From Amoebophrya sp. A120 (taxonomy: Eukaryota; Protista; Dinoflagellata): a stretch of 64,000 bases of DNA. Position numbers and translations under genes: made by a program. The stretch spans positions 8,988,417 through 9,052,416 of the forward strand of contig CAJINV010000004.1 in assembly GCA_905178155.1 (NCBI GenBank), in the 5' to 3' direction. The notes beneath the pieces were generated by a model. That model did not search any database. It was not told the DNA's origin and saw nothing but the letters and a program-made list of their open reading frames with translations. Positions 3,410 through 61,884 of the stretch are shown piece after piece; positions within the stretch are counted from its first letter, which is position 1, and the number at the start of each line of letters is the position of its first letter.

Positions 3410-6400
3410 ATGAGCGTCACAAGAAAAGAGTCTAATTCTCCTCCTTCCACCAGGGAAAGGCAAATCCTGGAATTTTGGGTTCCGGAAAGCGAAGGTGATC
3501 AGACGCAGGTGACTTTGTATACGGCCTCAAAATCTGAGTGCAGATACCGGGCTCGGACAACCAGGCAAGACGAACTGCCAGTCGGGGCTCGGACGCTCGA
3601 GGAGATGGTTAAATTAGCGGAAAACTCGATCGAGGCGTTCAGCCGCGCGACAGCAGACCTGAGGCTGGAAAGCGGGCGCGATGGCGCACAGCATGCGGGA
3701 GATACGGCGGACGATGCGTTGCAGTTGCTGGAGTATGTGATCCAAGCAGAAATTGCTTGGGAAGCAAACGGGGAAATAAGGAAGTGTATGATTACTCAAC
3801 ACTACCGCGAGCGAGTTTCCGCTGCACGCGAGGGCTTCAATGCTGCGGTACAGGAATTCACGAGAGTATGAAAGTGCACAACTCCCCCTTCCCCTCATTT
3901 GTCATGCAAAATAGAAATACCCAATCCAGATCCACCCTTTGCCTCTTTGCACTGTTTGCATCACAAGTTCTGGTAGCCCAAATAGCACTACAACCCTGTG
4001 CAAATTTGTCATGCAAAACCGGCATGCTTGCTGATGCTTGTACTGCCGTTCATGCTATACAAATGAGGGGAAGGGGGGGCTGTGCATTGTTATAGAGAGC
4101 CAAGGAAGACCAAGACGCCCGGAATAACCCCATTGTTGGCCGGGCGAGAGCATCAAGAGCGAGTTCTTCGGGTTACTCCCTTTCATCCGACAATAGAGAA
4201 GCTGCGAAGGTCCAGGGGGCCGCGTATGGTCCGGAGTCGAAAATAAACGGCCTCGCGCCGTCGAGCTCGTCTACATTTCGAAGAACAAGGACAGAGCGTG
4301 GTCGAGACCGTAGAGGAAGAAGTGCAGACTCGGATGGAAATAAAGTAGCGACCAGCTCGTGGGATAGGAAAACAGCCGATGATCGAGATAGGAAAACAGC
4401 CGACCGAGGTGAAGGAGGGCGCGAGCGAGATCGAAGGAGCAGTGGGAGATCACGCAGTGCCCGACGCAGAAAGCGAAGTAGCAGAGCGCGCAGTAGACGC
4501 GCCTCCAAGTCGAAGACCGATCGAAAAGCCGCATCACGGTCACGGTCACGGGATCGAGCGGTGTGGAAGCGGTCGGTCGAGGCCCCTCAACAGGGGACTG
4601 GGTTGCTGACGGGAGCGGATGGGAGTGGTAAGTGTATTTTACTTTCTACCTTTTTTGTCGAGTAGCGATGGAGATAAAGCAAAAACGTCATCCAGTTTTA
4701 GAAAACTCGCTGGGACATCTTTTGATCCTCCTCTACATGATTATTACAGGTGCACCAAAAGCAAAACAACTTTCTTCTTCATCAAGTTCGTTGCGGCGTT
4801 CGTACAACACGTCAGCCAAGAAAAGCGAACGGTTTTTGTCGGAGGCGGAACAGGAGCGTGCAGTCTTCATCAACTGGCCCATGCATTACGAGCACGCCGC
4901 CGTCTCACCCGCGGCGGAGGCCGATCACGACTGTATTCGGGAGGAGCTGTTTCGCCGGGTCGGAGGAGAGCATCGCGTCGTAGACTACTATTGCCAGGAC
5001 GAGCACGCTGTGGTTGCGGTGTTCGCTGACGCAGCGGACGTGGAAAAAGTACTTGAGGCGTCGCAGCGCCTGAGTTTATTGGATCCAGAGTACCAGGCCG
5101 ACGCTTTTTCTTACAACCGTGATCGAGCCGCGTCTTCTGCACCTGTTCCGAAGCACGATGCTGGGGCACGGCAATCTGGCTCGTCCGTTCAGCAAGCCGC
5201 TGGAGCTGTTTCCGTTTCATCTGGTTGTGACGTGAAGGAGAAGGAAAAGGAGCAGGACGAGCAGGAGAAAGCAAGAGCAACCGGCAGCAGCAGTGCGCTA
5301 GTAGGAGCCTCTGCCTCCCAGCTAGTTGCCAGAGGCGCTGCCGCGGGAGCCAGTAGCAAAGGCGAAGCTGAAGAAGAGCCACTGGCAAAGCGCAAGAAGA
5401 CCGCTGAGAAGAAAGGCGGAGCCCTAGTAACCAAACGGAATAAGGCAGCTGGGGCGGGGCCTGCGAGTGGAAAAAACGAAGAAAACAACCCGTCCTCCTC
5501 GGCTTTAGGGCGTAGCAAAAGCAAATCGACGCGGGCGGGCGCTTCGTCGTCAGGCAGCGGCGTGCTATGTATAGTGATACAACTCTATGTAATACTAATT
5601 TCTTCTGCAGTAATTATAGAGGCCTTGAGCTACTAGTATTACAAATGCGGATTTCATCTCCTCCTCGTGGCAAGATCTGCATAATATAAAATGAACCAAA
5701 AATTATGTCTCGAAAACGAATAGGCGCCGGCGCGGCATCGAGGCAGACGGGTACGTTAACGGAAGACCTGGCGCAGCAAGTACGGTTGAAAGTTGAGGAA
5801 TTCGTTTTCACCGTTGGCGTAAAGAAGTTGAAAGCCATATAACCTGCTCAGGTGTTACAATCTGAAGCGTTGCAATAGAATATGGAATTTGTGTTGCAAA
5901 ATCCGCAACATCTGGCCTACCCCCAAAGGAGCGCGCATGACAAGTTTCGGAGCCCCAAACCCCATGAGATTCTGACGAAATTTGTATTGCGAAAAGCCCA
6001 AGTCTCTGTATTGTAAAGAGGCTGTTCATGCAAGACAAATTCCAGATTGTATTGTAACGTTTGAGATTGTAACATCTGAGCAAGCCATAAGCCAAGTGTG
6101 CGGAGCTGGGCGTTCGATTGCCGGAACGCACGTCACTTTTACGCGTGCGCTATCAAAATGAAAAATCCCCCGTCCCCATATTAAAACGGAAATTTGTGAT
6201 GCTGATTTGTGGTCAAACATCGTCTTTGTCTTGCATATAGGGTCATAGGAGCCATTTTACGCATTCCAGAGCAAATCTGTCATGCGCTTTCGATATCAAA
6301 TGCAAAAATGTCTGGGTCTGGAAGAATGCAACTTGTAATGCGTATTTCAGAACACAGAAAAGTCTCTCATGCATACGTAGCAAAAGCAGCCACTTTTTGT

Positions 6401-7025
6401 CAGCAAAATAGGGGACTTGTCATGCGGATTCGGCATTGCGGAAGGTTCTCGAAACCTGTGATGCTAGAGCTTCCATGCCAGACCTTCTGTGTCATGCAAA
6501 AACAGCATGAATCTTCCTTTCCAGACCCAGACATTTTTACATTTGATATTCGACTATTGCGAACCTGTACCTGTTTGCCATGCGCAATTGCTAGCCTTCT
6601 GCATACCCAAACAGGCCAAGAAAATGCACCCACGCACCTTCTGCAAGACAGATCTGATTTGTGTACGCAAATCCAGCATCAGAAACTTCGTTTCGATATG
6701 GGGAGGGGGGACTTTTCCTCTCAATATGCGCGCGTACGCGCTGCAGAAATGGAGTAAAACCTTGAAGACAACTGATCGGCCATCTCTACTCACGCTCGAC
6801 GAGTTGCGTCGGCGAATCATGGAGATTGGGAAAACCTTGATTGGGCGTCTAAGTGACCTCGAGGCACTTGAGGAGGCGGGGGCAGAAGATGCGCGGCTGG
6901 AAACTGCCCGCGCGGAGTTGAAGGCGGTGTGGGAAAAATTTGATACCATTAAAAAGGTGACGGATTCATACATCGAGGCAGAAAATCTGCCCAGAGAGGA
7001 GAACGAGGAGGGTTCTCAAAACTGA
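3410..7025 (+). CDS. Paralogue c: helical N-terminus, RS/RD-rich region, RRM-like domain, SAP-like C-terminal domain
   Basis: Frame restored by removing introners 3867-4094, 5838-6089, 6151-6726, a GT-AG intron 4628-4749 and a probable GC-AG intron ~5560-5723. Joins read EFTRAKEDQD, KKLKAKCAELGV, LLRVRAYALQKW. Confidence 0.65.
3867..4094. mobile_element. Introner, family F
   Basis: TIR TATGAAAGTGCACAACTCCCCCTTCCCCTCATTTGT; 5-bp direct repeat GAGAG; excision restores frame. Confidence 0.9.
5838..6089. mobile_element. Introner, family E
   Basis: TIR TATAACCTGCTCAGGTGTTACAATCT; repeat AGCCA. Confidence 0.9.
6151..6726. mobile_element. Introner, family D, carrying a nested family A copy
   Basis: TIR TATCAAAATGAAAAATCCCCC..CCCCATA; repeat TGCGC. 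Confidence 0.9.
6294..6548. mobile_element. Introner, family A, nested in the family D copy
   Basis: TIR TATCAAATGCAAAAATGTCTGGGTCTGGAA; repeat TTCGA. Confidence 0.9.
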
Positions 7026-7632: not shown

Positions 7633-10600
7633 ATGAGTGTCCGTTCCCAAGAAGGGCCTCCGAATGGTGTGGGGGATGGGAGTAGGGAGGACGACGAGGG
7701 GCATGAATCTGAGGACCCCGACTCATGTCAAGAACATACAGAGGACGATCCGGAGGCGGAAAGCAGGTACCTCCAACTGTATATAAAGATTCCGGACGTC
7801 GAGCCCGAGCTGCAGGAAAAATACGCCGCGCCCTTCAATGCCGGCAGCCGCGCCGAAACCGCTTGGCAAGAGTTGTACGACGACGCCTCTTACCAGGTGC
7901 AAAAGTGTCTGGCTCTGGAAGATTGCCAGGTTTGTCATGCATTTTTCGCATAACCTTTACCTTAACCCGTGAAGATGCCTGTAATGCATGACCTAGCATC
8001 ACAGATTTTCAAAGGGCCTTCTGATGCGTATTCCGCATGAGAAACGCCCCCTCCGTGTAGCACAAACTGAACTCCTCTTGCTGGCCATGCGATACAGATT
8101 ACAGTGGTTGAGGGGTAAAAAAGGTCATGCAATACAGATTTTTTTTACCTTCCAAACGTATTATTGTCACAAATTGCAACCTTCCAGACCCAGACAGTTT
8201 TGCATTTGATACCTCTGAGGAATTGGACAGATTGCTGGGCGAGGAAAGCGGTCTCGAATCTATCTACAAAGGCACCCGTCTATCCTGTGCAAAAGTATCG
8301 CACTCGTAGTAATTGCAATTATGCATGACAAATCTCTTTCTCAACGTAAATTAGCACTACAAATTGAATTTGTAATGCTGGGCTAATTTGTAATGCAGTT
8401 TATACTAGTACGACTACAATACTTTCGCAATGCATACCGTCGGGCCCCCGAGGTGGTGGAGGCGTTCACGAAGGATGAGAAGGGCCGCGACTTCCTGGCA
8501 GCCGCGCTGCGGAGGCGTCCCGCCGCCCTATACCTAGGCGAAAAAGTGAAGGCCACCGTCCACGCCCTGCCGCTGGATTTTGACGCGCTTGAGCCGCTGC
8601 GGCGTTGCGGGTACGCTGCTGACGACAGTGAGTCCGCGGTCTCCACCCTCGAGCGCGCCGTGCTACGCGGCAGCTCCTCCTCCTCGTCTTCTTTATCGCG
8701 CGACGCCGGCGCGTTCCCGGAAGATGACGGCGGCCGAGAGGCACTTGGCTGCCTCGCCCGGGCTGCCGAAGAGCAGCTGCAGGCGTTCCGCGAGGCGTTA
8801 GAGCAGTGCGCACAGCAATTCGGTGCGCCGGGTGCGACAGATTTCCTACCCTCATTTGCCGCGAAGATGGAAGAGAGAGTGCTGGAAATGCAAGAAGAAA
8901 TTGCAATCCACGAGTCCCGGACCAAGCACGCTCTATCCCAGGTCCCGAAGGTGGAGCCCCCGCCGGGCGACGCAGGTAAGCGGTCAGCGTGGCTTTTGTT
9001 AGAGATTCGCCGCGCTCCCTACTTAAGTAGCGACTTTAATACTTCGTATTGCTTCAGCATACCAGATCCTTCCCACTTCGTTCATTCCCCGGGTCGCATG
9101 CTTTGATATCGGAAACAAAAAAAGAATGAGAAAGAGATAAAAGGAGCAACTCATCTAACAGCGCAGTGTCGTACAGCCGCAGCTAGGAGCATATAAAAGC
9201 ATTCAATTTGATGATCACAGGTCGCACCTCAAGTTCCAAGTTAGCTCCGCGAGGCGGGAGAGAGCAGTCGGACGATGAAGTAGAAAAACGAGCTGCTCGT
9301 TCGGAACAGCAAACGGGTCGTGATGAAGAGCGGAAGACGACGAAGAATATTACCGTGAGTGCTCCTATCGCCGCTCCGGCCACAAGAGGGACGTCCATCA
9401 GCAACGCCAACAAGCCAACTACCTCTACTTCCAAACAGGCGGCGCTACCAGAGTCTTCACCAGCAAACCGCCTCAACAGCGGTCTTCCGCTGGCAGGGTC
9501 ATCTACTTCAGGCACAATTCTTGCGGGGGCTTCCTCTACCCGACCGATGAAGCGACATCAAGCGCTTGGTGAGAGTGGGAGTGGAGCGGAAATGATCGCA
9601 GTAGACGAATTTGACGCACCAGCTTCCAAAACGAAAAAGTCCAGGCGTGTGGACGGGCAGGAAGATAAAGACCCTCTGCCGAAGGAGCTCTCGACGAAGC
9701 TTCCAGAAGATGAAAACAGAGCCACCTCCGCCTTGAGTTCGACAGTATTGGAAAAGAAGAAAAAGGACGCGGAAAAAGAAAAACAAGCCAGCTCAAGAAG
9801 TAGTGCAGCTACAAGAACAGGTTTGCGTTGTATAATTTGCGTCTTTTGCTGCAACATGAGTGCTTGTTCATCGACTATAGGTTTTCTGTTGTCGGAGTCG
9901 GTGTAAGTAAGTATCTACATCTAGTGCTCAACATGCCACAGAAAAAGAGACGCGGAACCGCAAAGTTCAAAATGCGCTTAATTTGCGAATTGATGTTTTT
10001 ACACCAGGTCCTCACGATCATGCCCTCGATCGTCCGACGGGAGCCACAAGCAACTCTCGAGGAGGAGATCACGACGACAAACCCCCGCCCCGAAGACCCG
10101 CGGCGCTCTCGAACGACTGCAAATCCAAGGTCGAAGAGGTGCTCATGTTGTCCAGCAACGAAGCGAGAGAACGTTGCGCGAAACATGCCGTGGAGATTGT
10201 TTTTGGAGAGCGCACGGAGATATGTATGGCCCGCCTTCTGAAGCACGAGTTTTCATCCTCGAAGCCCAAAGAAGGCGCTATGAAATGCAAATATGTCTGG
10301 GTCTGGAGGAATGCAAGACGTGTCATGCAGATTTTCATTTTCCATGCCACATCCACATGAAGTTTGGAATGCAGGACTTAGAGTGACAGGGTCTTCGACG
10401 TCTCTATCATGCCTATCCTGCATGACAAACTGCCTCTAAACTTGTTCAAAAGTGTACAGCTTTTGGTAGTCATGCACCACAAATTTTTGTACGATCCAGA
10501 CTTAGCAATAGCATGAAAAGTTCGCGTCCTCCCAAGACCCAGACATATTTGCAATGCATAAGCGCGAAGCAAGTGCAACAACCTCCGCGGGTTCACAGCT

Positions 10601-10890
10601 ACCTTCTGCAGCGGGCGCGAGCTATGGTGCATCAGGAGCTGCGGGCGAGAAACGGTGGCCCGCCGACCGATTCGGCGCCCGCGGCCGCCCTCGATCCGAA
10701 GGCCTACGCAGAGCGGGTTCGCAATGCCGGATCCTTCGAAAAGAAGGCGGCTCAGTGGAAGCTGGTCTACGATTCTTTGTGCAGCCTCGATAGCCCGGAG
10801 GCTGGTGCTTCTCGCAGGAGCACAACAAAGGCGAAGCCTTTAGGCCTTCAAGGCGCCGGTGACCAAAGCACGAATAAAGCTGGAGGCTAG
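7633..10890 (+). CDS. Paralogue d: N-terminal domain shared with paralogue f, coiled coil, S/K-rich linker, SAP-like C-terminal domain
   Basis: Introners 7891-8211, 8281-8436, 10279-10560 and GT-AG introns 8976-9220, 9821-10007 give one frame (DDASEELDRLL, GTRRAPEVV, KEGAKQVQQ). Confidence 0.7.
7891..8211. mobile_element. Introner, family A
   Basis: TACCAGGTGCAAAAGTGTCTGG...CCAGACCCAGACAGTTTTGCATTTGATA; repeat CCTCT. Confidence 0.9.
8281..8436. mobile_element. Introner, family B
   Basis: TIR TATCCTGTGCAAAAGTATCGCACTCGTA; repeat CCGTC. Confidence 0.9.
10279..10560. mobile_element. Introner, family A
   Basis: Family A TIRs; repeat GGCGC/AGCGC. Confidence 0.88.
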
Positions 10891-11717: not shown

Positions 11718-14700
11718 ATGACGACAGACAGACGAGACGACGATGCGGAGCGGTACGCGATGTACGACTACGAAGACAAGGAGTATTCTATTTAAAACGT
11801 ACCCACCCCATAGTTGTAATGCGAATCTGCATGCTGAAAATGTTTCTCATGCGGAGCCCCATGAGAAGCATTTTCTAATCGTGTTTTGCAACTTGTCATG
11901 CTCCAATCAGCATGGTATGCTAGATCTGTGATGCTGCTGAGCTAGCTCAAACAGCACTACACTACGAATCCAAATTTGTCATGCAAAACAGCCAAAACTT
12001 GTGGATTTGTCTAGCCGATTCCCCATCTTGACTATGGTGTGGGGACGTTTTTACTCAGGATAAGGAAGCAATCACCGTTAAGGTTCCCCGGCTTTGTCCC
12101 GCCTCGTCCTCTGCCGGCTCCGGTGAAAATCCCGCCGTGGATGACCGCGTCTTTGACGTTTATTGGAAGGCCACGAAGTACCAACCGCGGGGTAAGATTG
12201 CCCTTTCCGCCAACCGTGTGCGGGAGAACGCGATTAGCATGGGCGCCCTGTTGAAAAAATTCGAAGTCGCTATAACGCAGTTCGACAATGCTGTGTGGGT
12301 TTTCAAAAATTGCAATTCGTCGGCCAACCATGGCGCGCCGGAAGATGTGGAGAAAACGTTGGAGTGGTTTGGCGACTGGGCCTTGGACCTCAAGCAGTTT
12401 GTCGGGTACATCCTGGAGGAGGATGGGAAGAACTCGCACCAAAGCCTCAGTGAAGCGGATTACAACCAGGCCCGCGGTATGGATTGCAAAAATGTCTGGG
12501 TCTGGGAACTTGTGATGCTGAGTGGCGAATCACGAGGACGTCACAAGTGACGGCTCACCATGACAAACTGCGTTTTTGCATGACAGAAAAGTGGAGCTTT
12601 TGGATAGCGTGCATGACACACTTGAGAGTCAGGGTCATGCTAAGCTGAGCATGACAAACTTGCGCGCTTCCAGACCCAGACATTTTTGCATTTGATACGC
12701 GAGTTGAAGCTCATGTTTGAGGAAGCGGCCAGGGACAAAGAGTGGTTAGCGCTCAAGGCCCGGCGGAAAGCAGGTGTCGTGGTGGACGACGACGGCGCTG
12801 TGGAAAAAGCTTCCGGCGGCGAGGCCAGCGCGGGTGCGGGTGCGGGGCAGCCAGGATCTTCATCCGACGACGGTGTTCTAGAAGTACCCGCAGCAACAAG
12901 ACACGGCACGGGCGGTTGCGAGATCAGAGGTGTGTCAACTAGCTCTACATATTTCTTGCTGTGCAAATCCAAATGCAAAAAAGAAGACCATCTTCTAGGA
13001 GTCGTCGCGTGAAGAAATCAATGTACTATCAGTTCCTGCTTTTTCCTCGTTTCTTTCTCTTCAACGTGGTAACCCAGCCCTCAACTTTACGTGCCTGCAA
13101 AATCGAAGGGCCTGCAGGAAAATTTATCTATATCCTTCCACAAAGGCCAAGATAACACTTGGCACGCAGAGTGAGTGACTCTCCTGTCACTCCGCACACA
13201 GCAGTACTGGGTGCCCGTCCACTCATTAGAATGAGAAAAGATAATGTTTATCCCGGACACGCACAAATATGATGATGATGATGATGATGTAAGTTTCTCA
13301 TTCGTCATCTTGAAGGTGCGTCTACTTCGAGCCAGTGTAGAAGTGGTCCGAAGGGGGAACAACAAGACACGAAAGCTGTAGGAGAAGGCTCAACTGAAGT
13401 GAAAGGTCGTTGTGGTTTTCCAGTACGAAAATTTTCGCTCGAGAACGAGCCATCTTTGCGAGAGAAAGACCCTGGGCGCCGCGAGAAGGAGGGCCGTTGT
13501 TCCCATCCGCGTAAGAAGACGGCGAGCAACACTAGGCACCACCAGAGGGGGCACGGTAGGTGGAACAAGAGCAGGGACTACACCAGAGACCCCCGTGGTC
13601 GGGACGACCGCTACGCCGCCGACCGCCGGCGCCGATCGTCTGGTCGAGGAGATAGAAATCGTGACTTCCATCATGGCGGCTCATCGAGGAGGCGAAGCGC
13701 CGGAAGGGGCAGGTCTCGCTCACGAGAGGACCGGGATAAAGACAGAGACCGGAATAGAGATCGCGACCGGGACAAAGATCGAGATTGGAACAAAGGTCGC
13801 GGCCGGGAGAAGGGTCGTCGACACTGGGGTTCGAAAGATCGGGATTGGCGATCGCGAGACCGTTACCCCGACCAGGGTCGCCGGGATGAGCGAGACAGAG
13901 ATTGGCGAGACGACCGAGGCTGGGGCCGTGACGCGGGTGACGCAAGGAATCGGGATCGCGACAGACGAGGGTGTGATGATGACAAAACCGGCGGGGCCAA
14001 GCCTCGGGACCATCAAAGCCGCTGTGGTAAACCAAGTCCGCGCGACAAGCGGAAGCGGTCCCGTGAGGAGCGCCAGCCTTCCTCGAAAGCAGCCGTCGCG
14101 GCAGGAGGTCCTGGCCGCTTACTTACTATGTTATCTTCTGCAGTCGCTACTTGTACTTCTGCTGCAGCCTTGTTTTCTGATGTTTCACTGTTCTGCCGGG
14201 TCGTTCTTTTTACGTAAGATGAAAAAAATACCGGAGACCTGTAGTTGCTTTGCAAGCTAGATAAGGATCGCCACTGTTAAATTGACGCTTTTGTCCCTCA
14301 CCATGAACAGTTCGAGATCGCGATCGTGGCCAGGAGACGGAGCGATGCTGGAAGCTGACGCTTACGAGCCTGTGCATTCTCCCCCCTGGGAAGGCAGAGC
14401 GAGCAGTTTACGTGAGACTCCCAAAGGACTACTTCGCCGCCAGTACTTCATCCAGCGATGCCCGCGACCTACGCATCAGGGAACACGAGTGCATCTGGCG
14501 GGAGCTGTCATCTCGCACTACGGACGCCGAGCGCGCGATCAAGGAGTATTTCTGTGTGTGCGACAAATATGTCGTCGTCGTGTTCAACACCCCTGCGGAC
14601 GCACTGCGAGTCCTAGAAGCCCCTGTGACGCGCGTCGTGCTATCCGATAACATCTCGGTGGCGGACGTGGCTCCTTACAGTCGCGACAGAGCCCGTGGGA

Positions 14701-31151: not shown

Positions 31152-31454
31152 AGTGGTGGTGAAGTAGAAAATAGAACTCCCTTGTCGTTCTAGTTCTTTC
31201 CACCTGTAGGATTTAATATGATGCGTTTCGATTTGGTTTTGGATTTAAAAGAGTGAGAGACAGGAGCAGCGGCGCGCCGAACGCTGGCGGACGAAGATAG
31301 TCAACTAAAGAATAACAGAAATTGATTCGGAACCAACTTCTACGAAGCTTATTCAGATGAATTTCTCTTTGAACAAGTAGTACTTAAGCGAACCAATAAC
31401 GTCCAAAGATCGTAGTTCCGTGTGTGTTGATGAGTTGCATCCTCCCTTACGCTA

Positions 31455-48600: not shown

Positions 48601-51600
48601 GCTGCGTTGACGTCGTCGCGTCCGCAGTCCGGGCGGTCCTCGAGATTGCCGTCTGCCCGCGCTTCGTCCGCTCTCGACGAGGAGGCGGCCTCGCTGCAGG
48701 AACAGTGTGCCTTGCAAATATGTCTGGGTCTGGAAGATTGTGACACTTCTTATGCTAGTTTGGCATGACTCCGAACTCTGTATTGCGTGGCCACGAGGAC
48801 CTCCTCTTGTCTATCATGCAAAAACGAGGTTTCTCATGCGGGATACGCAACACAGAGCCACGAGAAAATCTTTTAATGCTCCTTGGCGGTGCATTACAGT
48901 GCGCTTCCTGTTCACTGACATGCATTACAAGTTTCCAGACCCAGACATATTTGCACTTGATAAGCAGAAGCAGATCGCGATCTCGGCGCTGCGGAACATT
49001 CGGGCGACACTGAGTCGGGCCCGGGGGTCGAACCCGAAAGTAGAGCAAAATCACAGCGTACAGTCAGGCACTTCCGCTGGTGCGGCTGCATATGGTTCAT
49101 CTGTTAGGCGAAACGCATCGAATAGTACGAATTCGCAGCACTACAACGTGGTAGGTGGAGGAGCCGGTGGACATCATCTTCACCAGTTGCATTCATCGGG
49201 AGGAGCTGCAGCAGGTGGACCACTTCTGCACCCACATATTAGCCAGGATATCTCTGTGTCCGCCATGGAATCGCCAATTGTCAACATCGGAGGAGGTGGA
49301 CATCTCCATCATGGAGCAGTCGTGCCACCACAACACCACCTCCAGTCCACTTCCGCCGACAACGACGCGGACAACGTCTTCCGCCACGAATTTTCGAAGC
49401 GGTTAGAGCTCCACTCGAACTTGATCAAGTCTCTCCGCAGTTCGCTCGGGTTCGCGGAATCGGATCACAGTGTGTCCGCGGAAGACGGGGAGTGGTCGAA
49501 CGCGGTCACATATGAGAGTGCACAACTCCCCCTCCCCCTCATTTGTGATGCAAAAACCCAAATCCACATCTTGTCTGTAAGCACAGTGAGCATGACAAAT
49601 TTTGGAACCACAAACAGCACTACAATCGTCCGTGTGTAGATTTGTCATGCGCAGGCCCCATTTGAGCTGGTGTCTGTATTGCTGCTCATACCATACAAAT
49701 GAGGGGGAGGGGGAGTTGTGCAATCTCATATCACACCCCGCGTGTTTCCCGAGCAAGCATCGTCTACTTCCGGAGGTGGCGTTTTTCCGGTCACGACTGG
49801 TGGACCTGCAAATTCCGGCGGGCCGCTGCTTTCCCCCCGGCACCATGGCAAGATAAAGGTGGTCGCGGTCGCACACGAAGCTGCGGTGGCTTCCGCGCCC
49901 GTCGTGCCGCTCTCCGCGACCGCGACGGCACGACAAAGCTCGGCTTCGGATACAAATGTTGCCAGAAACAAGCAGCTTCCGACAACTAGTACCCCCGGTG
50001 GATCCGGAGTCACGAATATCCGTCCGATTATGTTGGACGTGAAGTCTACTTCCGTGGGAGATGAACAGCACCTCCAGGGTAGTAAGAACAACACCACCTC
50101 CTTCTACCCGCAGGCCCCGCTGACGGCACGGACCTCCTCCGATGCGGCGGTAGTGACCGATGCAGAGGGGGTTCTTCCTGGAAATCATGCTGGGGGCGTG
50201 TATTTACCCACGCCGGGTGGATCGGCTGCTGGTGCTGTTGGGGCAGCAGGAGTTCCAGCAGCAGGAGCGGGATCTTCGTCAGCTGCAGCGATCAACATGG
50301 TCCCCACGACCGGGGGTGCATCTTCGAGTGCCTCCCCGCACAGTTCTTCGCAGCAGCAAATATCTCTACAAGTTCATCATCCCACTGAAGTAGGCCAGAT
50401 GAACGTTGTTGACGACGAAGCCGCCGCGGGGACCGGAGGGACGGTGGTGGAGGAGGCAGGGCCCTCTTCCAACACGGCAGCCTCGCCGAAACAGCAACAG
50501 GAACGGTTTCTGTTCTACGAACCCGAGAAGATTGCGCAGCGAATGGCTTATTTGGAGGACCTATGGATTGCAAATATGTCTGGGTCTGGAAGAATACAAA
50601 CTTGCGATGCGCATTTCAGAACACAGAAAAATGTCTCATGCATAGGTAGCAAAAGCTGCCCACTTTCTGTCATCAAAATAGGGGATTTGTCATGCGGATT
50701 TGGCATTGCGGAAGCTTCTCGAAACCTGTGATGCTGGAGCTTCCATGCCAGACCTTCTGTGTCATGCAAAAACAGCATGACTCTTCCAGACCCAGACACT
50801 TTTGCATTTGATAGGGCCGAGTCAGCCGGTTCTGCAACGGGGAGGACATTTCGCCGAGAAAGCCGGCGACGCACTGGGAAGAAGAAGAGGGGGAGGACAT
50901 TATAGACGGTGCTGGCGGCATTCTTGATGCAGGTAACAAGAATAGGACCAGTAATCATAGTGAAGGTCTTGTTGATCTTGTCCCACCACCTCTTTTTCAG
51001 TCGCAGAACAAAGAGGTTTTTACTAGTGCCGCTGCCGAATCCGGCTCAGTCCCACGACAAGGGGGTTTCGGATCTAGCATCACCACAATCGCCGGCGACA
51101 GCGCAGCGCACAGTGCAACGACCGCCGACTGCACGGAAGAATCGACAGCGATCATTCTACAGCGGCTAGCCGCACAGGAAGCATCCTCTTCCTCGTCTAG
51201 CGAGGTGTTGGATCATCACTACGGTCAGGCAGGGCCGCACGACCCACGACATGTCACCGGCATAATACCAACGTGTGACGGCGGCACTGGAACAGGTATG
51301 GAGGAGGGGAATCCTCAACTAGAAGGACGACAGTACTACAACTCTGAACAAGAAGAGCAACAAATGTTAAACCAGAACTGGCACCAGGCGCAGACTGCGC
51401 AGGAGGGACTGCCGGATACCCCCTGCTCCGCCTCGGTCGAGGAGATTTTGCGATCCGGGGCGGCCGGCCCAGACCCGGCGGTGCTATCAACTCTCCGGGA
51501 AATTCGGCAAGGCAACTTCACTCTGGAAGGCCATCTTCTCGTGGCACAGAATCTGCATCAAGGACCAATTGGTGTCCCACCATCGGCGCAAGGAGTAGAC

Positions 51601-53103
51601 CGACAGCAAGTTGTTTCTCAGCCCGCGCCACAGGGCGCGACCCAGCCGCAGTTCCTCCCGCTGACCACGAACGACCTGATACCACGACCTGGAGTACATG
51701 TACAACCAGCAGCAGCGCCAACGACGACGACGCGCAATGTCTCTAGTTTTTCCCAGCGTTTCATCGATCCTTTGAATTCCCCTCCTTTGTCCAAAACCGG
51801 CGCTGCGCAGCAAAACTTTCAAATCGGCCCGCTCCCGCCAATAAACCCTGACCAGCTGTTCAGCCCTCGCGTGGCGCACTTACGGGCAACGTCGCCGCAA
51901 AGACTAAAGGTGGATGTGAAAAGCGCAGTCTCTTTGCCGCTGTCACCGAGACCGAAGTCACCAAGTAATGTGGTCAACGGTTTTGCGAGTCCGAAGAATT
52001 TGTTCGCTGGTCCTGGTTCAAATTCCGTCTCACCAGAAAAAGAAGCTTTAGATCCTGCGGGCAATGGCATTCGAAACCAGAATACAAATGTCGCGATGTC
52101 GGCGGCGCAGCTGCTCCGGATGCAGAAGGAGTGGGGACGATTGGCAGCCAGTACTAGTAGTTCCTCAACTATGCGGCGTGAGCAAGTGGTGCAGGAGGTC
52201 GAGGTAGCAGCAAACCAGGGATCTTCACAGCAGAAAATAAATGCCAGGGCGAACTCCCTTCCCATCGATTCCCCGAGAACGGTGATAAAAAAGGTCGGAA
52301 AGGCAGCGGAGGCGGCGAGTGCCCAGATTCAGGAACGAATGATCAAGGCCGGAGCTGCTACGACTTCTCCGATCATGCTGAGCCCGCGGAGCAACAGCAA
52401 CTCCCGGAGCCCGGTGAGGGACGCGGCAGAAGATGCAGAGAACAAGGAGAACCAAAACTACCGCAGCCGAAGCGAGGGGGGACAGCACGGACGAACGGAG
52501 AATAATTCTTTATCGCATAACTTCTACACCGCCTCCACTAAAGCGAAAACAACTCTGCAACAGCTCGTCTTTGTCGGCCCGCCGGCGCAGCAGCGGGGGT
52601 TGAGCCCTCCTAGTAGGCTGGATTTTTCCGGGATGCAAACGTCGCCCCAATTGCGGACCCGCGCGCGTCCAGGGACGATGGTGGCAAGTAGTACTAGGAA
52701 CAGCAGCACGGCTACTAGTACCAGGCCGGCGATCAGTGGTGCTGGAAATGGGGTTGTAGGTGGTAATGGAAACGCTGCTACAGCTACTTTTCCGCCGACG
52801 AGCGACGGGCCGGCTCCTGCACTGGCCGCTCCGCAGCAGAGAACTGGGGCGAGGGTAGCAGTGATGCAGAGCACCATGCCAGCTTTGCAACGCAGGGCGA
52901 ACATCCCCGTCGCTGCACCCCCAAGTGCTGGACTACAGAAGCGTGGGCTTGCAATGACGGCGCCCGGAATTATGACGAGCAGTGGAGCTGCAGTGTCTGG
53001 TGGTGCTGCACAGGGAAACAAGACGCGGACTCGGATTATTCGTGCCACAGGGACCCGACGCTCGTCGGAACTGGACCCGGTCCCGGAAATGGACGAAGTT
53101 TAA
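42684..53103 (+). CDS. Very large low-complexity S/P/Q/R-rich protein (~3077 aa), unknown function
   Basis: GT-AG introns 44004-44132, 46110-46268, 48012-48165 and introners 48706-48962, 49511-49730, 50562-50813 join ORFs 42684, 44496, 46242, 48082, 48707, 49718 and 51205 into 9234 nt. Confidence 0.7.
48706..48962. mobile_element. Introner, family A (begins TGT)
   Basis: Repeat AACAG/AGCAG. Confidence 0.88.
49511..49730. mobile_element. Introner, family F
   Basis: Repeat TCACA. Confidence 0.92.
50562..50813. mobile_element. Introner, family A
   Basis: Repeat GGACC/GGGCC. Confidence 0.9.
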
Positions 53104-54482: not shown

Positions 54483-57400
54483 ATGGGCAAAAAGAAGAAG
54501 GAAGAGCAGACCAAGGACGGCGAGCCGCCGTTGCAAATCGGCGAATCCTACCGCGGGCTGCCGAGAGAGGTGAATGACCAGCTGCTCCGCGAGGCCGTCC
54601 CAACCGCCGAGGAGCTGAGGCAGCACGGCACGGCGTTCGCGGATACGAAGCGAGAGCAGGTCCGCGCGGAGCACGGACTCAAGTCCGTGTCCGATGAGAA
54701 TCGAAAATATGAACTGCAAAAGTATCGTACTAGTAGTAATTGCAATACAAATTAGCTCAGCATGACAAATGGAATTTGTCATGCTGTTTTGCCTTCGGAT
54801 GGAGATTTGTAATGCAAGACTTGCATTTATACGAGTTTAACGCTGGACCAGGCGGTGTCAAATTGAATTCAAAACGAATTCAAAATGAATTCAAAAAGTG
54901 GGCACTTTTGAAATGAGCCACATTCCGCGATGCCCTGGACTCTCAGCGGTTGCTGCCCCAGCAGCTTTTGGCGACCTGGTAGCGCCGCTGCCTGCTGGCT
55001 CATTGGCTCGGGGGACGGGCTCAACCCGAAGGGCTGCTCCGCACCGTACTAGGAGTGTTGCTGAATGATGACCGAGGGCCAGAGCGATGCGCTCTGGTTC
55101 ACTTTCCGGCATACGCCCGCATCGCCTGCGAAGGGCGACGGCGCTCTGTCGTGGCTTACTATTTCGCGCCACTTTTGTGTAGCGCCTGTCTGACACTGGT
55201 GGCGGTTTAGTCATTCCCGCGGCCGGCGCTATTATTGGCTTTGGCACTCCGGGCAGGAACACTACAACAGGCCCGCACGGGCGCAGAAGGGGGCTGCGCT
55301 TGTTTGCGGCGCTAATTTGGGATCGGCGCAACAATTCTAAAGTTCATCGGGGAGTGGATCTCAATTTCAAAGTCCATCCGATCGACCGGCCCCAATTCAA
55401 ACTCCATCCGGACGACCGGCCCCAATTCAAAACCCATCCGGACGATCGGCCCCAATTCAAACTCCATCGGGGCCATCGGGGCAAATTCAAAACTCATCCG
55501 AATTCTGTCCGAATTCCGTCCGAATTTTGTCCCCTACTTGGGTTCTTGATTCGGACGGATTCTGACAGAATTCGGATGGATTTTGAATTGGTGGGGGATG
55601 GGATTTTGTGGTCCGGGCCACCAGAGTTGTGCCTCCAGTCGACTTCACCTACCGAGACCAGCCTGGGCGATCTTGGGTGGCTGACCGCATTGGGAATCGC
55701 GGCCGGGGATGGCCTCGCCCCTGGCGGCATTTTGTCCACTAGCGTCACATGCAATATGCACAGGCTGACTTGCTTGAGCGCTCGCCGGGCCAAGCCGCGA
55801 CCCCGACACCGAGGCCAGCCATGCTCCTAACCGCATGCGCCGGCCCCCGACGGTTTCCGGCATTTTTCCGTGGTTGGGCAGGGTCTTCTCTTATTACACC
55901 GGCAGCACCCCCCTGGCGCCGAGCCGGGTTTCAAGTCTCGCAAGTTAAGGCATGATAACAAACTTCGGCCGCCGGTCGAACCAAAGCGCGTTCGCCCCAT
56001 TTCCCGGAAGCTCCTTCGCATGGTTGGATCCAGTTGCCGTTTCGCGCCTGGTCCGCTGGACCAAGCACAGGGCGCAGCGTTCGTGTGAAAGCGGCTACAG
56101 GCCGTTTTCTATGGCTGTCGCGCGCCGCATTTGTTTCGCCCGATTCGCCCCCTCGGAGGGGCGTTTTTTTGAAAATGCCAACTTTTTGAATCCAGTTTGA
56201 ATTCCGTTTGAATCACGATTACACTCCGAGCGGTCTAGAGTTAATACGAGTACGATACTTTTGCACAGGATAGAAAACGCGACACTGCGATGTACTACCA
56301 GCCGATGCCCTATGGATGTGTCAGGATCGAAATTAATCGACAAAGTCGAAAAATTTGTGATGCATAAAATGTAGAGCACTGAAGGCCGGTATTGGGGAGA
56401 AGGCATCTGAGACCGATTGTAAGCCTGTTTAGGCGTATACAATGTGCTGCCAGAGTAGCATGACAGGAGCAGCCTTCTTTGCCCAAACAGCATGACAGAC
56501 TGGATTTGGGTGCTCCCGAAATTTCTCATGCGCCACTTGGAAACTGAGGCTCCAACTGGCATCGATTTTGTGCATCACAAGTTTTTCGATTTTGCGAATT
56601 TCGATTCTGACGCTTCCATATGCCCGGGGAGGACGGCGCGGTTAAGCCGGTGCCGACGCAGGGAGAAAAAGTGGACCCCAGTACGGAGAAGGGAAAAGCG
56701 GCACCGCCAGCGAAAGCCCCGTCAGGGACGAACAAGATAACACCAAAGCCCCTCGATCTCCAAGCGGACTCCGTGCAAGCCCCGTTGGAACCAGAAACTC
56801 CCATGGCGGACCGGATCAACGCACACAAATCCGTGTCCCGGGCGACCACGCCGAAGGGGGAACACAAAAAAATCTCCGAAACCGCTCTGGATTCCATCTC
56901 CCAGCAGCAGCATTCCGGCGCGAAAAAAGGGGTTTTGAAGAAAGAGGAGTCCAAGGGAGCCAGTTCCGATCACGGTACCTCAGAGAACAAAACGGGGACC
57001 GGGGGCAGTTCCAGTTTCCGTGCTATCAAGGAGCGGACCGCAAGACTGAAGGAAGCCCGGAAGCAAGCCAGGATAAACACAGGGCTGACGGCCAAGGGAA
57101 GGTACGACCGGGTCATGCACCAGAGAAACGAAGGGAGAAGCTTTCGGAAGGTAAGATTTAGTAACTTTTGTATAGAGGTGTACACTTTTACGAATACTAC
57201 CCATATCGAAATAGGCAGTACCTCGGCAAAACATTTGTAAACCACAAAATAATGCCAACATCAGGGAATGCCTATTCTGTCCGAGACCATTGAGTTCACC
57301 CTCGAGCGCATGAAGGACCACTACAAAGAGCAGGAAGATGCGGGAAAGATGACGAAACGCGCCCTCCGGGAGCGGCAGAAGGGCATCAAGAAGGAGAAGA

Positions 57401-60400
57401 TTGACAAGAACAGCCTGGAAAAGATGTTCATGACGTTTCTCGCGGTCTTCAAGGCCATCGTCTTCCACCATGTGTTTCTACGCATGGCAAAAGTATCGTG
57501 CTAAGTAGTAATTGCATCACAAGTTGTTGGGTCGGCATGACAAATAAAATTTCTGATGCGAATTTAGCTTTAAGAAAGAGATTTGTATTGCATCTCTGCA
57601 ATTCCAATTTACAACTAGAACTACTGCGAGCACGATCCTTAATTTGCAATGCATAGTTTCCGAACATAAATAACAACCTCGGCATGCGGATGATCTTCGA
57701 GCGGATTCTGCCCTGCATCGAATTCCCCCTCCACTGGCTCGCGGTGTTCTGCGAACCGCAGTTGGGGTACAGCATGGGACAGATGTGTCCCTACAACCCC
57801 GGCTACGACGAATCCGCCGACGCAATCGACCCCATCGAGGGCATCCCGAAGGGCGAGCCGCTCGTGGACACGTTTCCCTTCGCGGCGCCGGTCTTTGGCG
57901 TGCTGTTTCCGTATCTCTGCGTGTTCTGGGTGTGGCGGAGGGCGATTCCTTATGTTCGATTGCGGATTTTGTCGAACAAGTATCAAACTGAAAAATGCCG
58001 CCACCCCCGAACTTGGGAGCATTTGTATTGCAAACCTTTCCAAATGAAGCAGTCGCGTTCTTGTATCTATCAGCATCACAGATTTTCAATCGTGAAGAGC
58101 AAAAATTTGTATTGCAAAAGACCCCAGCAAGAGTGGCGCTTGTCATGCAAGTGATGCGATACATGACTAGACTCTGCATCAGAAAGATTCATACTTCTTT
58201 CATGCATGACAAAAAGTTTTCATTTGGAAACTTCGCGTCACAAGTTTTTGCGACTTTGGGCGTGGGGGCATTTTTCACTGTAATAACAAACACCTGGTGA
58301 TCGGAATGCTTCTCTGCCGGTCGGTTCTTATATCAAATGCAAAAATGTTTGGGTCTGGAAGAATGGGCGATTTGTCATGCAGCTTTTCCATGACCCATGA
58401 GGTCTGGAATGCAGGGCCTAGCGTGACAGATTCTGCGCGATCTCCCTCATGCCTATCCTGCATGAGAAACTCCCTCCCGACTTGGTCAAAACTGGACGAC
58501 GTTTGGGAATCATGCAACACAGATTTTTGCATGCTTCAGATTTAGCATGACAAGTTGGATTCTTCCAGACCCAGACATTTTTACATTTGATATCTCACCG
58601 TGAAGCGCAATCCGGCCTCGGTGCAAGTCGGTATGGGCGTGGATGGCGACGACGCGATGCTGACCACGTTCTCCTTAACCTCCTGGCTGATAATAGGACT
58701 GCCATTAGTGTATTTGATCGACATATCCCACGAAAAAACTGTTTCACTGTGATGGTTTTGCAAGATCCGCATCACAAGTTTGCTACACATGACACAGGAA
58801 ATTTGCCATGCGCGCATTTTCCATAGGGGAAAACACGCTTGAAACTCCAATGTTCTATGCAGGTGTAGCAAGACAGATACTTCTGTGCTCCATTCTATGC
58901 ATCACAAGTTCACAGTGAAACAGTTTTTTCTTGCGATGCGACACCATCATCTTCCTCTGCTTCTTCCCCTTCCGCGAGCCGCCGAACTTCTATGCAATGC
59001 AAAAGCATCGTACTAGTACAAATTGCATCACAAATTAGCCCAGCATTACAAATTGAATTTGTAATGCTAATTTGCCTTGAGAAAGAGATTTGTAATGCAT
59101 ATAATGCAATTAGAATTACTACCGGTACGATACTTTTGCACAGGATAACTTCCTCGCCGCGACCAAATTCTTCAAGGCGCAACTGATGATGATCTGCGGG
59201 AGCCCAAGTTTCATCCTGTTCGACGTGATCCTGATCACGAGCGAGGGCCCGGGAGGCCCAAGAGAAAAGACCTTCGCGATACTGGGACTCTTGGTCAGCA
59301 TCTGCACGCTGTGGTATTTTATTTTATTCGGCAGTTCCTCTTTCGAATTCGAAGTTGCATCACCATGATCGGCAGCATTGCATGTTTCGTATACAGCTTT
59401 TCCCACCACTTCTGTCCATGCCGCTGGTCGTAATTGCCACAATCGAAACACCAGTACGGAAATGCTTAAAAACTTGAATTTTTCCTATCAGGTTCACCAT
59501 CCTCCGCGTTTCTCAAGTTGCGTACCGCAACCTCATCACTATGTGGGAGGTCATCCTGCTCACCTCCCGCATGGGCAAGGGCACCGGGGGCGACTCCATA
59601 TCCGCGGTGAGCAAAGCGAAGCAGGCGGACATCGCAGCCGCGGCAGCGAGGATATTCCCGCCCTTTTTCATCGTCATGGCGCAAATGAAAATCTGCAGTC
59701 TGGAACACGAGAAATACGTGATCAACGAAAACGAGTTGGCGCAGTTGGGCCACTGTCTGTTCAACAACATTTACATCAAGCACCTGGTGATTCCCTCGAC
59801 CTGCTGCAAGAACCTCGTGAAAGCGGGCTACACGCTGTTCGACGCCATCGAGCATTGCGTGATAAAGATGGACAACTGCGTGCTGGAATCCTTCAACTGG
59901 TTCCCCATCATATGAAAGTGCACAATAACCGAAACCCCCCTTCCCCTCCGTGCTCGTTTGTCATGCGGAAGACTGAGTTCGTCTTCGTTGTAAGTGTAAC
60001 CAATAGATGGCCGGCGCCGGTTTTGGCACTCTACACAACATGTTGACCATTCATTATTCCATGCAGTCCTAGTAGGACTGCGGTCGATCAACATGTGCGG
60101 CTGCAGCTTGTGCTTGTTACTAGGCCTGAATGAAGGGGACGTGGGGGAGCTGTGAAATCTCATACGTCAAAGACATTCTGTACAAGCCAAACCTCGTTTT
60201 CACGATGGACCGATACAGGTACGAATGCTGATAAAGAAGCTCTTCATGTTGCTGTCAATGGCATTGCAATGCAGAGGCTTTTGGATATTTTTCATTTCTT
60301 GTTTAAATCCGACCTCGGTCTTCGAAATAGCATGACAGGAGAGCAATGCATCGGCCCAAACCACCACCATAAAAATCAATACACTCAACACCACAGGTAC

Positions 60401-61884
60401 GGCCACGAAAAGCTGAACCTCCAGTACGAGATGTCTTTCACGGATTCCTGCTACTACCTCGCCGCTGGCGAGCGGATGCAGCAGCCTTGGACTGATTTGG
60501 AGGCCATAGTGTTCTGCCGAATGATGCCGTACAACAAAAACTTGGTCCATCTTGACCTCTCCTCGAACCTGCTGAAGGACTACGGCTTCATGGCGCTGGC
60601 GGAATTATCCTGTGCAAAAGTATCGTACTCGTATTGCAATCATGCATTACAAATCTTTTTCTCATAGGTAAATCAGCATTACAAATTTTATTTCTCATGC
60701 TGAGGAAATTTGTAATGCGTTTATACGAGTACGATACTTTTGCAATTTATAGGAATTCCTTTTCTGCAACTCCCAGCTGAAACTTTTGAACATCTCCAAC
60801 AACGACCTGGACGGGTTGCAAGACCGGACGCTGGACACGCTACTGGACGCCGTGGTTTCGCACCCAAGGTTAGAGTCCGTGCAGTTCTCCGCGAATACGA
60901 TACAGCTTCCGATTCGCGACTTCGAGGACGTCGAGGTGCTGAAGTGGGACGCCTACTATCCTGTGCAAAAGTATCGTACTCGTATTGCAATCATGCATTA
61001 CAAATCTTTTTCTTAAGGTAAATCAGCATTACCATTTACAAATTTTATTTCTCATGCTGAGGAGATTTGTAATTGTAATGCATTTATACGAGTGCGATAC
61101 TTTTTTAGTGTATACCTACAATGTGTACACGATCAACGTGAACCAGATCGTGGGGCGCGTGGTGGAGTTAGTCTTAGAAAACCAGCTTTCCTTCGATAAT
61201 TTCCCTCCCCATTGCCGGTTCGACCACTACTGCACCATCATCCAAAACGCTTTAGCGAACGACATGGCGCTGGCGAGACAGGTGTCCTGTAGCCTCCACC
61301 CGAAGTTGCGGCGATTCGTCGCGGAGCGGTGTGCGAAGAAGTTGGGGCACCCCTTGGGGAACGACCCCGAGGACTTGCTGGACCTATACGTGAAGGACAG
61401 TCGGAAAGTGAAGCAACTGACGAAGAAGGAGAAGGCGAGCCGCGACGATTTGTACCTGCCGCCGAAGGACCGGATCGTGATCAGCGTTTTAGGGTCGCTA
61501 GAGGGGATGGCGATGGCCATGACGCTGCGGTTCTCGCGGCACTTGCGAGAGATTTTTTTGGAGGGAAACCGGGTCTCGGACCGCGGGGCGGAGATGTTTT
61601 TTCGTCTTCTCTGCGAGCCGGGGAATGTCGTAGAAATGCTGTCGCTAGCCAATAACGACATTGGGTACGCGAGGAATAACTATGTCAAGGGCAGAGCGGT
61701 AAAGTGGCTCCAGCGAGTGCTCCAGCTGCCAGAAGCGAACCCGATGCTGCAGCAGATAGATTTGTACCAAAACGACGCCTTTGTCGCGTTTGAGCGGGAG
61801 ATTCGGGTGTGGGTCATGGCGCGGCCGCAGTCAGACGAAATTATGCCGCTGGAGTGCAACGTGAAGAGGGGGATGCGCGGCTGA
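54483..61884 (+). CDS. Multi-pass membrane protein with C-terminal RNI-like leucine-rich repeats (~1110 aa), 14 exons
   Basis: Ten introners plus GT-AG introns 57151-57264, 59314-59491, 60219-60396 give 3333 nt in frame. LRRs: LVHLDLSSNLLKDYG, LKLLNISNNDL, LREIFLEGNRVSDRG, VEMLSLANNDIG, LQQIDLYQN. Confidence 0.78.
54841..56240. mobile_element. Non-autonomous piggyBac-like element with TTAA target duplication
   Basis: TTAA at 54837-54840 and 56241-56244; ~70-bp imperfect TIRs starting CGCTGGACC / CTCTAGACC; no transposase ORF. Confidence 0.75.
55331..55500. repeat. 30-bp minisatellite (~6 units) inside the TTAA element
   Basis: CCCAATTCAAACTCCATCCGGACGACCGGC-like units, followed by an inverted repeat at ~55483-55589. 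Confidence 0.85.
56311..56620. mobile_element. Introner, family H
   Basis: Repeat TGCCC. Confidence 0.9.
57479..57655. mobile_element. Introner, family B (diverged)
   Basis: Repeat GTTTC. Confidence 0.85.
57981..58285. mobile_element. Introner, family K (D-like ends)
   Basis: TATCAAACTGAAAAATGCC...GGCATTTTTCACTGTAATA; repeat ACAAG/ACAAA. Confidence 0.88.
58331..58592. mobile_element. Introner, family A
   Basis: Repeat TCTTA/TCTCA. Confidence 0.9.
58724..58938. mobile_element. Introner, family G (opposite orientation to 30531)
   Basis: Repeat CGACA; right end ...ATG. Confidence 0.9.
58991..59147. mobile_element. Introner, family B
   Basis: Repeat ACTTC. Confidence 0.9.
59911..60164. mobile_element. 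Introner, family F (diverged)
   Basis: Repeat CATCA/CGTCA. Confidence 0.85.
60606..60751. mobile_element. Introner, family B
   Basis: Repeat GGAAT; join ALAEFLFCNSQL within an LRR. Confidence 0.92.
60957..61114. mobile_element. Introner, family B
   Basis: Repeat CCTAC; very similar to 60606-60751. Confidence 0.9.

Follow-up and report, generated by a model that had tools for sequence, protein, structure and literature searches.

Within a stretch of 64,000 nucleotides from the dinoflagellate Amoebophrya sp. A120 (NCBI GenBank assembly GCA_905178155.1, contig CAJINV010000004.1, positions 8,988,417 to 9,052,416 of the forward strand; this whole stretch is referred to as the window), scans on element ends and flanking 5-mers reveal 48 TAT...ATA elements between positions 3867 and 61114. 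Our analysis supports the conclusion that they are precisely removed non-GT-AG introns, the removed length being that of the element plus 5 nt. The elements are the published introner elements of A120, so their kind is already known and has been rediscovered here. The original prediction, made from the letters of the window, had pointed to Farhat et al. 2021, a link which is right and even closer than stated, as organism and elements are the same. In that work the introner elements are described as about 240 nt long and hairpin-forming, with inverted repeats of TAT, seven variable bases and at least three As, and with direct repeats of 3-5 nt at the exon/intron boundary (5 bp in the legend of Fig. 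S19); 29,850 copies with RNA-seq support are reported and the mechanism is left open (PMC7789003). What the present analysis appears to add, judged from the texts searched, is the exact removed length, the register of the cut, the independence of orientation and the direction-specific conservation of a U at intron position +2 and of an A at position -7.

Elements and their removal from coding exons

Forty elements were recovered by looking for TAT...ATA pairs whose ends match and which are bordered by a 5-mer; searching with the end motifs of these forty led to 8 more. Exact TAT...ATA ends are present in 42 of the 48, while six carry one variant end (TAC twice and TGT at the 5' side; ACA, ATC and ATG at the 3' side). 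The flanking 5-bp direct repeats are perfect in 39 cases, contain one mismatch in eight and are degenerate in one (AGATC/ATACA at 21720). These counts agree with those originally given, as does the claim that the duplicated sequence differs at nearly every site, 47 different 5-mers being found across the 48 sites. With at least 15 of 24 matches between the terminal inverted repeats (TIRs) and at most one repeat mismatch as criteria, the real window contains 38 TAT..ATA pairs compared to none or one in each of five shuffles. An inverted-repeat scan without such constraints returned noise only, and an Rfam search of window bases 1-47,000 (of 64,000) gave no match. Among the 96 ends, TAT is found at 90, and TGT, read inward, at one from the 5' side and one from the 3' side. 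Element positions 11-14 are occupied by A in 36-44 of the 48 elements per end, which fits TAT followed by seven variable nucleotides and As.

The proposed grouping into 11 TIR families holds as far as the existence of repeated families is concerned, but not in its number, which depends on the cut-off (seven end clusters at 21-22 of 30 matches, two to four at looser cut-offs). Element pairs within the window reach 96% identity. A pattern search furthermore provided 130 metagenome loci in which these families recur with up to 97% identity and which do not overlap with window exons; 43 of 45 window elements have near-full-length relatives (72-97%) there. The 297 elements of these loci show a perfect repeat at 5 bp in 231 cases, at 4 bp in three and at 6 bp in none. 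Family members occur in both orientations, which are balanced. The two ends are predicted to pair as a hairpin in 39 of the 45 copies shorter than 400 nt (median z -7.7), and z falls below -3 in one of the 17 GT-AG introns of the window. With TIRs, a constant 5-bp duplication, both orientations and no coding capacity, the elements are non-coding miniature DNA transposons, i.e. miniature transposable elements with inverted repeats (MITEs) of the non-autonomous TIR type. The 5-bp duplication suggests mobilisation in trans by a DDE transposase. No transposase was found in eight longer copies from the 130 metagenome loci, whose longest open reading frame (ORF), 415 codons without Pfam match, lies in a 2459-nt copy with matching ends and duplication (locus L062, 476-2934).

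Of 106 window hits to a shared internal motif, TTGTVATGC or its complement, 104 fall inside elements, and 47 of the 48 elements contain it; it is a candidate site for a transposase or a splicing factor. Every one of the 47 copies that are not nested falls within coding sequence, whose share of the bases outside elements is about 70% (P about 4e-8), a distribution that may reflect insertion preference or fast decay outside exons.

Forty-seven of the 48 elements interrupt coding exons of nine plus-strand gene models, the remaining one being nested in another element. As predicted, deletion of the element plus 5 nt keeps the full ORF in all 47 exonic copies, and deletion of the element plus 3, 4, 6 or 7 nt does so in none. 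Deletion of 2 or 8 extra nucleotides, however, passes in all 47 as well, so the frame test cannot fix the removed length, which is instead fixed by the contig described below. A metric based on ORF span was discarded as too lax, wrong lengths passing in 40-43 of the 48. The lengths originally given for four reassembled genes (6225, 672, 9234 and 3333 nt) could be reproduced, and ordinary GT-AG introns, as had been noted, are found in the same genes. The GT-AG introns of the nine models were picked by the analyst to complete the ORF, and four models match database proteins exactly. Spliced in silico, genes E (20182..31151, plus strand, 2074 aa, with a PF04488 glycosyltransferase domain and a coding sequence devoid of GT-AG introns), H, B and C, which together contain 25 elements, yield the database proteins P0001, P0009, P0010 and P0012, respectively; P0001, P0009 and P0012, named Amoebophrya sp. 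A120, are 100% identical to the window proteins. The A120 database gene models were built from aligned transcripts (PMC7789003).

The statement that no GT/AG pair is consistently available at the junctions is borne out. Across the six possible registers GT-AG is present in one of the 48 elements (GA-AG in three, AT-AC in five), so the elements do not have the GT/GC...AG ends of U2-type introns. An in-frame GT..AG pair at most 12 nt from both ends is found in 13 of the 48.

Reads and contigs were compared over 18700-38699, which comprises 25 of the 48 elements and none of the eight one-mismatch duplications. In run X1, a contig of 5616 nt covers gene E in four displayed pieces without a single difference over 3142 nt. 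The offsets between these pieces, 1400, 2133 and 802 nt, equal the element-plus-5 sums for six, six and three elements, exactly the removal that had been predicted for the junctions. Fifteen elements are hence missing by exact sums and two more by one end each (17 of 25), while the remaining eight are not among the displayed contig pieces. The 15 elements, with their direct repeats in brackets, are located at 22563..22814 (TTCGA), 23165..23416 (CCCCG), 23632..23784 (CGGAA; 3' end ACA), 24030..24280 (CGGTG), 24351..24499 (CTCAA), 24542..24854 (TCTAC), which interrupts the motif VVYYDRD, 26163..26424 (CAGCG), 26496..27393 (CTCGC; 3' end ATC), 27482..27803 (GGGTG), 27855..28066 (TGTAC), 28384..28532 (TTCTT), 28577..28836 (CATGA), 29417..29672 (ACATG), 29814..30135 (GTGGC) and 30531..30739 (TCCTC). 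The composite element at 26496, 898 nt long owing to a nested insert, is skipped as a single unit, and 26163 and 28577, members of one family in opposite orientation, are both skipped. Gene E contains two further elements, 21061..21212 (GGTTC), the sole copy with a GT-AG register, and 21720..21967 with its degenerate repeat, which brings its inserts to 17. The displayed piece ends fit removal of 5 extra nucleotides at one base before TAT and four after ATA in eight of eight cases, and in other registers in seven of eight. Removal of the element plus 2 nt (N-TAT...ATA-N) fits at most two of the eight piece ends and was rejected; removal of the element plus 8 nt fits at most three.

X1 shows traits of RNA, namely uneven depth and one piece which ends just before a GT. 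One X1 contig of 549 nt, at a depth of 6.7 compared to 22, matches internal sequence of the 898-nt element perfectly. X1 thus likely behaves as RNA of strain A120. In the flat-depth run X5 (depth 21-29), contigs at those junctions that are displayed continue for 20-37 nt inside the elements, from which it follows that bulk DNA carries them. From the raw RNA runs X8 and X9, 248 and 139 reads could be placed, nearly all of them partially and on repeats, and none covers gene E exons. Sixty-nine X8 reads leave the element end at 19268-19354 into sequence outside the compared stretch; they stem from an element copy elsewhere which is unremoved in X8 RNA.

Cut register and conserved bases

Where the duplication is perfect the junction can be slid along it, while imperfect duplications fix it. 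We denote by k the number of bases before TAT which belong to the intron, so that the register -1/+4 corresponds to k=1. At the degenerate repeat of element 21720 the contig resumes at 21972, i.e. the 3' cut falls 4 nt after ATA, which among the element-plus-5 registers fits only -1/+4. The database proteins equal the spliced products only for k of 1-3 (P0001), 0-2 (P0009), 1-5 (P0010) and 0-4 (P0012); k=0 is excluded by P0010, k=3-5 by P0009 and k=5 by P0012. We infer that the intron starts one base ahead of TAT and ends four bases past ATA, with the consequence that the exon keeps four left and one right base of the duplication and the pre-insertion sequence is restored. At three of the eight one-mismatch junctions the register evidence comes from database proteins, and at none of the eight from direct RNA reads. 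Mutation direction, used in an attempt to polarise the mismatches, did not determine the register either. In Table S4 of Farhat et al. the nine top A120 motifs all start with N-T (PMC7789003), which we do not count as support, since slidable junctions together with aligner preference could yield such starts.

The mismatches in the eight one-mismatch duplications are transitions throughout. With the -1/+4 register applied, the exon copy reads A or T and the intron copy G or C in seven of the eight, a bias which does not clearly recur in the metagenome set, and a GT start results in all three cases in which position 5 is affected.

To these junctions the metagenome copies could be added. Of 275 copies with at most two mismatches, 182 were oriented to the gene from their flanks alone, by a caller which was correct for 40 of 43 window copies; together with the 48 window elements they form a gene-oriented set of 230. 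At -1/+4, a U at intron position +2 and an A at -7 are invariant in all 230, with one possible exception outside the oriented set. The duplication contains no required base in these copies and the first exon base is free; GT...AG at k=1 occurs in two of the 230. The variation of the terminal triplets depends on direction: element position 1 shows no variant at the 5' end and five at the 3' end, position 3 six and none, respectively (Fisher p=0.002). When only the 182 metagenome copies are considered, a test made once the window had suggested the idea, the counts are 0/3 and 4/0 (p=0.029). Across positions 9-28 variation is even between the ends (118 versus 120), about 7.5 variants being expected per position and end. 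At position 3 the pair-breaking exchange of U to C is seen, while A to G, which would keep a G-U pair, is absent, so that the pattern runs against pairing. Since a DNA transposase is blind to gene direction and a strand bias of mutation would shift both positions alike, the asymmetry is best understood as selection acting on the transcript. Eight further variant copies did not pass the orientation filter. By eye, two of them agree with the asymmetry, while four vary at position 2, one is unorientable and one is a candidate counter-example.

At k=1 the elements carry T at +2 in 48 of 48, A at +3 in 47 (G once) and T at +4 in 46. The GT-AG introns of the window start with GTA in 14 of 17 cases and have T, C or A at +4. 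An A at -7 is present in 10 of 18 window GT-AG introns.

A search for decayed elements among the 17 window GT-AG introns gave matches of 13-18 nt only (E 0.01-0.05). The 257-nt GT-AG intron at 17971-18227 reads G-TAT...ATA-G, is devoid of direct repeat and hairpin, and resembles one element family at its 3' end (14-nt match, E 0.025); possibly, it is an old element turned canonical. The same ends are found at 5569-5723, there without family likeness.

Possible mechanisms of removal

We consider it moderately probable that an adapted, hairpin-guided spliceosome reads the element ends in place of GT and AG. The spliceosome is favoured because N-U-A-U represents the local donor without its G and because a branch A at -7 has precedent. 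The DNA itself shows elements with TAT...ATA as inverted ends, which have no coding capacity, lie in either orientation and are flanked by a 5-bp duplication whose sequence is arbitrary. A DDE transposase encoded elsewhere would insert the elements by a 5-nt staggered cut. Pairing of the two ends of an element within the pre-mRNA is predicted to form a long hairpin, which would bring the junctions together, and the intron would include one base in front of TAT and four behind ATA, as one contig junction indicates and three informative database proteins are consistent with. The N-U-A-U 5' end might then serve as donor without a G at +1, the A of ATA that never varies, which lies at a distance of 7 nt from the 3' junction and is a candidate branch adenosine by its position, might act as branch nucleophile, and the 3' junction might be chosen by distance rather than by AG. 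In A120, U2, U4, U5 and U6 as well as 83 of 89 spliceosomal proteins are kept, while U1 was not detected (PMC7789003). A branch A located 6-8 nt from the intron end, the acceptor being at a fixed distance, is known from Yarrowia, Trichomonas and Giardia (PMC2483917; position by our own arithmetic), and in the tunicate Fritillaria non-canonical introns are spliced by a modified spliceosome (PMC13326754). Somewhat more tentatively, we propose a spliceosome that has given up the GU and AG rules altogether, taking its donor U from TAT and its branch A from ATA and counting one and four duplication bases outwards, whereby any insertion in either orientation would be erased without a footprint.

Several observations weigh against a spliceosome of this kind. 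In known spliceosomes the G at +1 and the bases of the final AG interact with each other, and in the 230 gene-oriented copies neither a G at +1 (62) nor a final AG (10) is enriched. A stable hairpin would mask the donor and branch bases unless it is unwound. The bases preceding the -7 A vary by family (TTG, TGC, TCC, AGG) and do not form a U2-pairing consensus, and GT-AG introns predicted in the metagenome loci show no excess of A at -7 (0.31 of 90), the predictor being weak (7 of 21 exact on the window). The end asymmetry comprises 11 variants only, and the copy L033 (GAT...ATC, not clearly coding) contradicts it if it is a spliced copy. The register is based on one direct junction, of which the 3' side alone is displayed while the 5' side follows from the element-plus-5 rule and P0001, and on gene models produced by software with a possible preference for GT (which k=1 yields at 12478). 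Finally, X1 is taken as likely RNA by guess, its RNA status not being on record.

That last point also bears on whether the elements are spliced at all, or whether they are skipped by template switching of reverse transcriptase, by excision at the DNA level or because the strain lacks the insertions. A hairpin combined with a direct repeat is just the substrate of the template-switching artefact. The joint at 21720, however, is exact though it has no shared bases, none of the nine ORFs would survive retention of the elements (gene E alone has 17 inserts), and the ends appear to be under selection in transcript orientation. X5 contigs enter the elements, while the X1 contig matches over its 3142 nt without a difference and is accompanied by the element-internal contig of 549 nt. 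Such skipping is therefore largely refuted already and we regard it as very unlikely.

The original prediction had assumed a second, transposon-end-guided removal system alongside the spliceosome. Guidance by the ends stands, as the duplication is free of signals, both orientations are removed and the hairpin is predicted in 39 of 45 copies. Separateness from the spliceosome does not stand in the same way, since the donor-like N-U-A-U and the +2 U and -7 A fit a spliceosome at least as well. A non-spliceosomal system, either a structure-guided endonuclease that acts together with a ligase and cuts one base ahead of the hairpin and four bases behind it, or a dedicated ribonucleoprotein, would readily account for the unconstrained bases at +1, -2 and -1 in 230 copies and for hairpin and orientation independence. 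In Euglena, paired ends with a 3' overhang longer by 2-3 nt are found, for which the authors favour non-spliceosomal factors and report circles (PMC12501133), and Farhat et al., in whose A120 data U1 went undetected, concluded that the mechanism should be distinct (PMC7789003). Yet the invariant bases occupy the places expected of a donor U at +2 and of a branch A, N-TAT matches the GTA(T/C/A) donor of A120 itself, on which a new enzyme would have to converge, and a candidate for such an enzyme is not known and did not emerge from this analysis. On balance we consider such a system rather unlikely, though by no means negligible. Quite improbable, in our view, is spliceosomal removal with another branch site or a variable register, the terminal bases being recognised by a hairpin-binding adaptor. 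It would agree with splice sites described as variable at 1-5 nt from the inverted repeats (PMC7789003), with the lack of a branch consensus around the -7 A and with k=1 being fixed directly by one junction only. The informative sites, however, all agree on k=1 or k=1-2, and slidable junctions by themselves give the variability reported.

Gene models, nested inserts and known systems

The elements outside gene E are distributed over eight further plus-strand models. Gene model A (3410..7025; two GT-AG introns, three near-equivalent models) contains four elements, 3867..4094 (GAGAG/GAGAG) in an exon, 5838..6089 (AGCCA), 6151..6726 (TGCGC) and, nested in the latter and the sole non-exonic copy, 6294..6548 (TTCGA). 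Gene C (7633..10890, 683 aa, identical to P0012; two GT-AG introns) harbours 7891..8211 (CCTCT; 5' end TAC), 8281..8436 (CCGTC) and 10279..10560 (GGCGC/AGCGC), where base 1 of the left copy is kept in the database protein. In gene B (11718..16492, 1161 aa, identical to P0010; three GT-AG introns) the elements lie at 11784..12062 (AGGAG/AGGAA, a synonymous difference) and 12478..12697 (CGCGG/CGCGA), base 5 of the right copy being kept in the database protein at the latter. Gene model D (17248..19488; two GT-AG introns) contains 18801..19039 (ACTAC) and 19087..19354 (CCGCC).

Gene model F (35019..36952, 223 aa) carries five elements, 35129..35277 (GCGGT), in front of which a contig piece ends at 35123, 35305..35559 (GCGCC), 35925..36204 (GATCG), which is 96% identical to 11784, 36250..36528 (GTCTT), oriented opposite to 35925, and 36614..36887 (CGCCG). 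Gene model G (37539..42051; two GT-AG introns) contains 38513..38663 (GTGCA) and 41709..41869 (CGTCT). Gene H (42684..53103, 3077 aa, identical to P0009; three GT-AG introns) is interrupted at 48706..48962 (AACAG/AGCAG, synonymous; 5' end TGT), 49511..49730 (TCACA) and 50562..50813 (GGACC/GGGCC, base 3 of the left copy being kept in the database protein). Ten elements reside in gene model I (54483..61884, 3333 nt; three GT-AG introns): 54708..56272 (GAAAA), which measures 1565 nt including a nested insert, 56311..56620 (TGCCC), 57479..57655 (GTTTC; 5' end TAC), 57981..58285 (ACAAG/ACAAA), 58331..58592 (TCTTA/TCTCA), 58724..58938 (CGACA; 3' end ATG), 58991..59147 (ACTTC), 59911..60164 (CATCA/CGTCA), 60606..60751 (GGAAT) and 60957..61114 (CCTAC). 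The element at 26163 is oriented opposite to 28577, 19087 and 58331, and that at 30531 opposite to 58724.

The 1400-nt insert nested in element 54708 (54841-56240) is bordered by TTAA at either side; it has short inverted ends and, subterminally, an inverted repeat of 47 nt (54867-54913 / 56167-56213). Judged by the TTAA, we take this insert to be piggyBac-like. Once it is subtracted, 161 nt are left of the host element. The insert in element 26496 (about 26678-27323, some 646 nt) has variant copies in a DNA-like run. At 31455 and 32732, direct repeats of 45 nt with one mismatch surround an open frame of 392 codons (31604-32779) without Pfam match, which by eye may be tyrosine-recombinase-like. 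The start codon of gene F together with its surroundings, a stretch of about 54 nt (35013-35066), has a duplicate 1.1 kb upstream (33913-33966), which is followed by a stop. Exons of genes A (4750-5570) and B (14311-15850) encode a similar peptide stretch (ERAVFINWPMHY / ERAVYVRLPKDY), so that the two genes are possible paralogues. Towards the end of the window (about 63300-64000), units of 19-20 nt are arrayed in tandem, and a pyrimidine-rich stretch is present as well.

With the A120 introners of Farhat et al. the window elements share the organism, TAT ends, 5-bp repeats, non-GT-AG junctions, absence from transcripts and arrangement in families. In the sections of that text available to us, the junction within the repeat is left unresolved and the removed length of element plus 5 nt, the -1/+4 register, both orientations and the +2 U and -7 A are unstated (PMC7789003). 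A literature search confined to texts, with Figs 3, 4 and S19-S25 of Farhat et al. and the datasets of PMC12130899 outside its scope, found no report of the register or of the -7 A, and the portion consulted of the preprint by Roy et al. 2023 does not mention Amoebophrya (10.1101/2020.10.14.339549). The nonconventional introns of euglenids resemble the A120 elements in their MITE-like origin, paired ends, slidable junctions, lack of GT-AG, occurrence beside conventional introns and a 3' overhang exceeding the 5' overhang (PMC12501133, PMC11282704). Their signature, N3CDG and CH'GN5-6 followed by R, is nevertheless absent from the A120 elements (N-TAT / ATA-N4), and circular products are reported for them (PMC12501133). 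Fritillaria borealis likewise possesses transposon-derived non-GT-AG introns beside canonical ones, yet with the preferred ends AG-AC and AG-AT and with U1 and U2AF variants, whereas +1, -2 and -1 are free in A120 (PMC13326754, PMC11282704). The introners of Aureococcus, Micromonas, Symbiodinium and Polarella also have TIRs and target duplications and in part occur in both orientations. Their G(T/C/A) and AG, however, are supplied either by the element or by a duplication under constraint, while the duplication in A120 is unconstrained (10.1101/2020.10.14.339549, PMC11282704). Among transposons, both TDD-4 and TDD-5 of the Ginger2/TDD group share the 5-bp duplication and a few A120 copies end in TGT/ACA, but the termini of that group read TGTNR and those of the A120 elements TAT (PMC2836005). 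Integrase-like TIR elements have been reported in A120 (PMC12130899).

The fixed -1/+4 register would allow annotators to set the element junctions consistently and, together with the invariant +2 U and -7 A, makes the mechanism of removal testable by lariat mapping. At stake is how A120 removes tens of thousands of introns without shared terminal dinucleotides. Be it a spliceosome freed of GU and AG or a new machine, either would bear on transposon-seeded introns and on the limits of splice-site chemistry.

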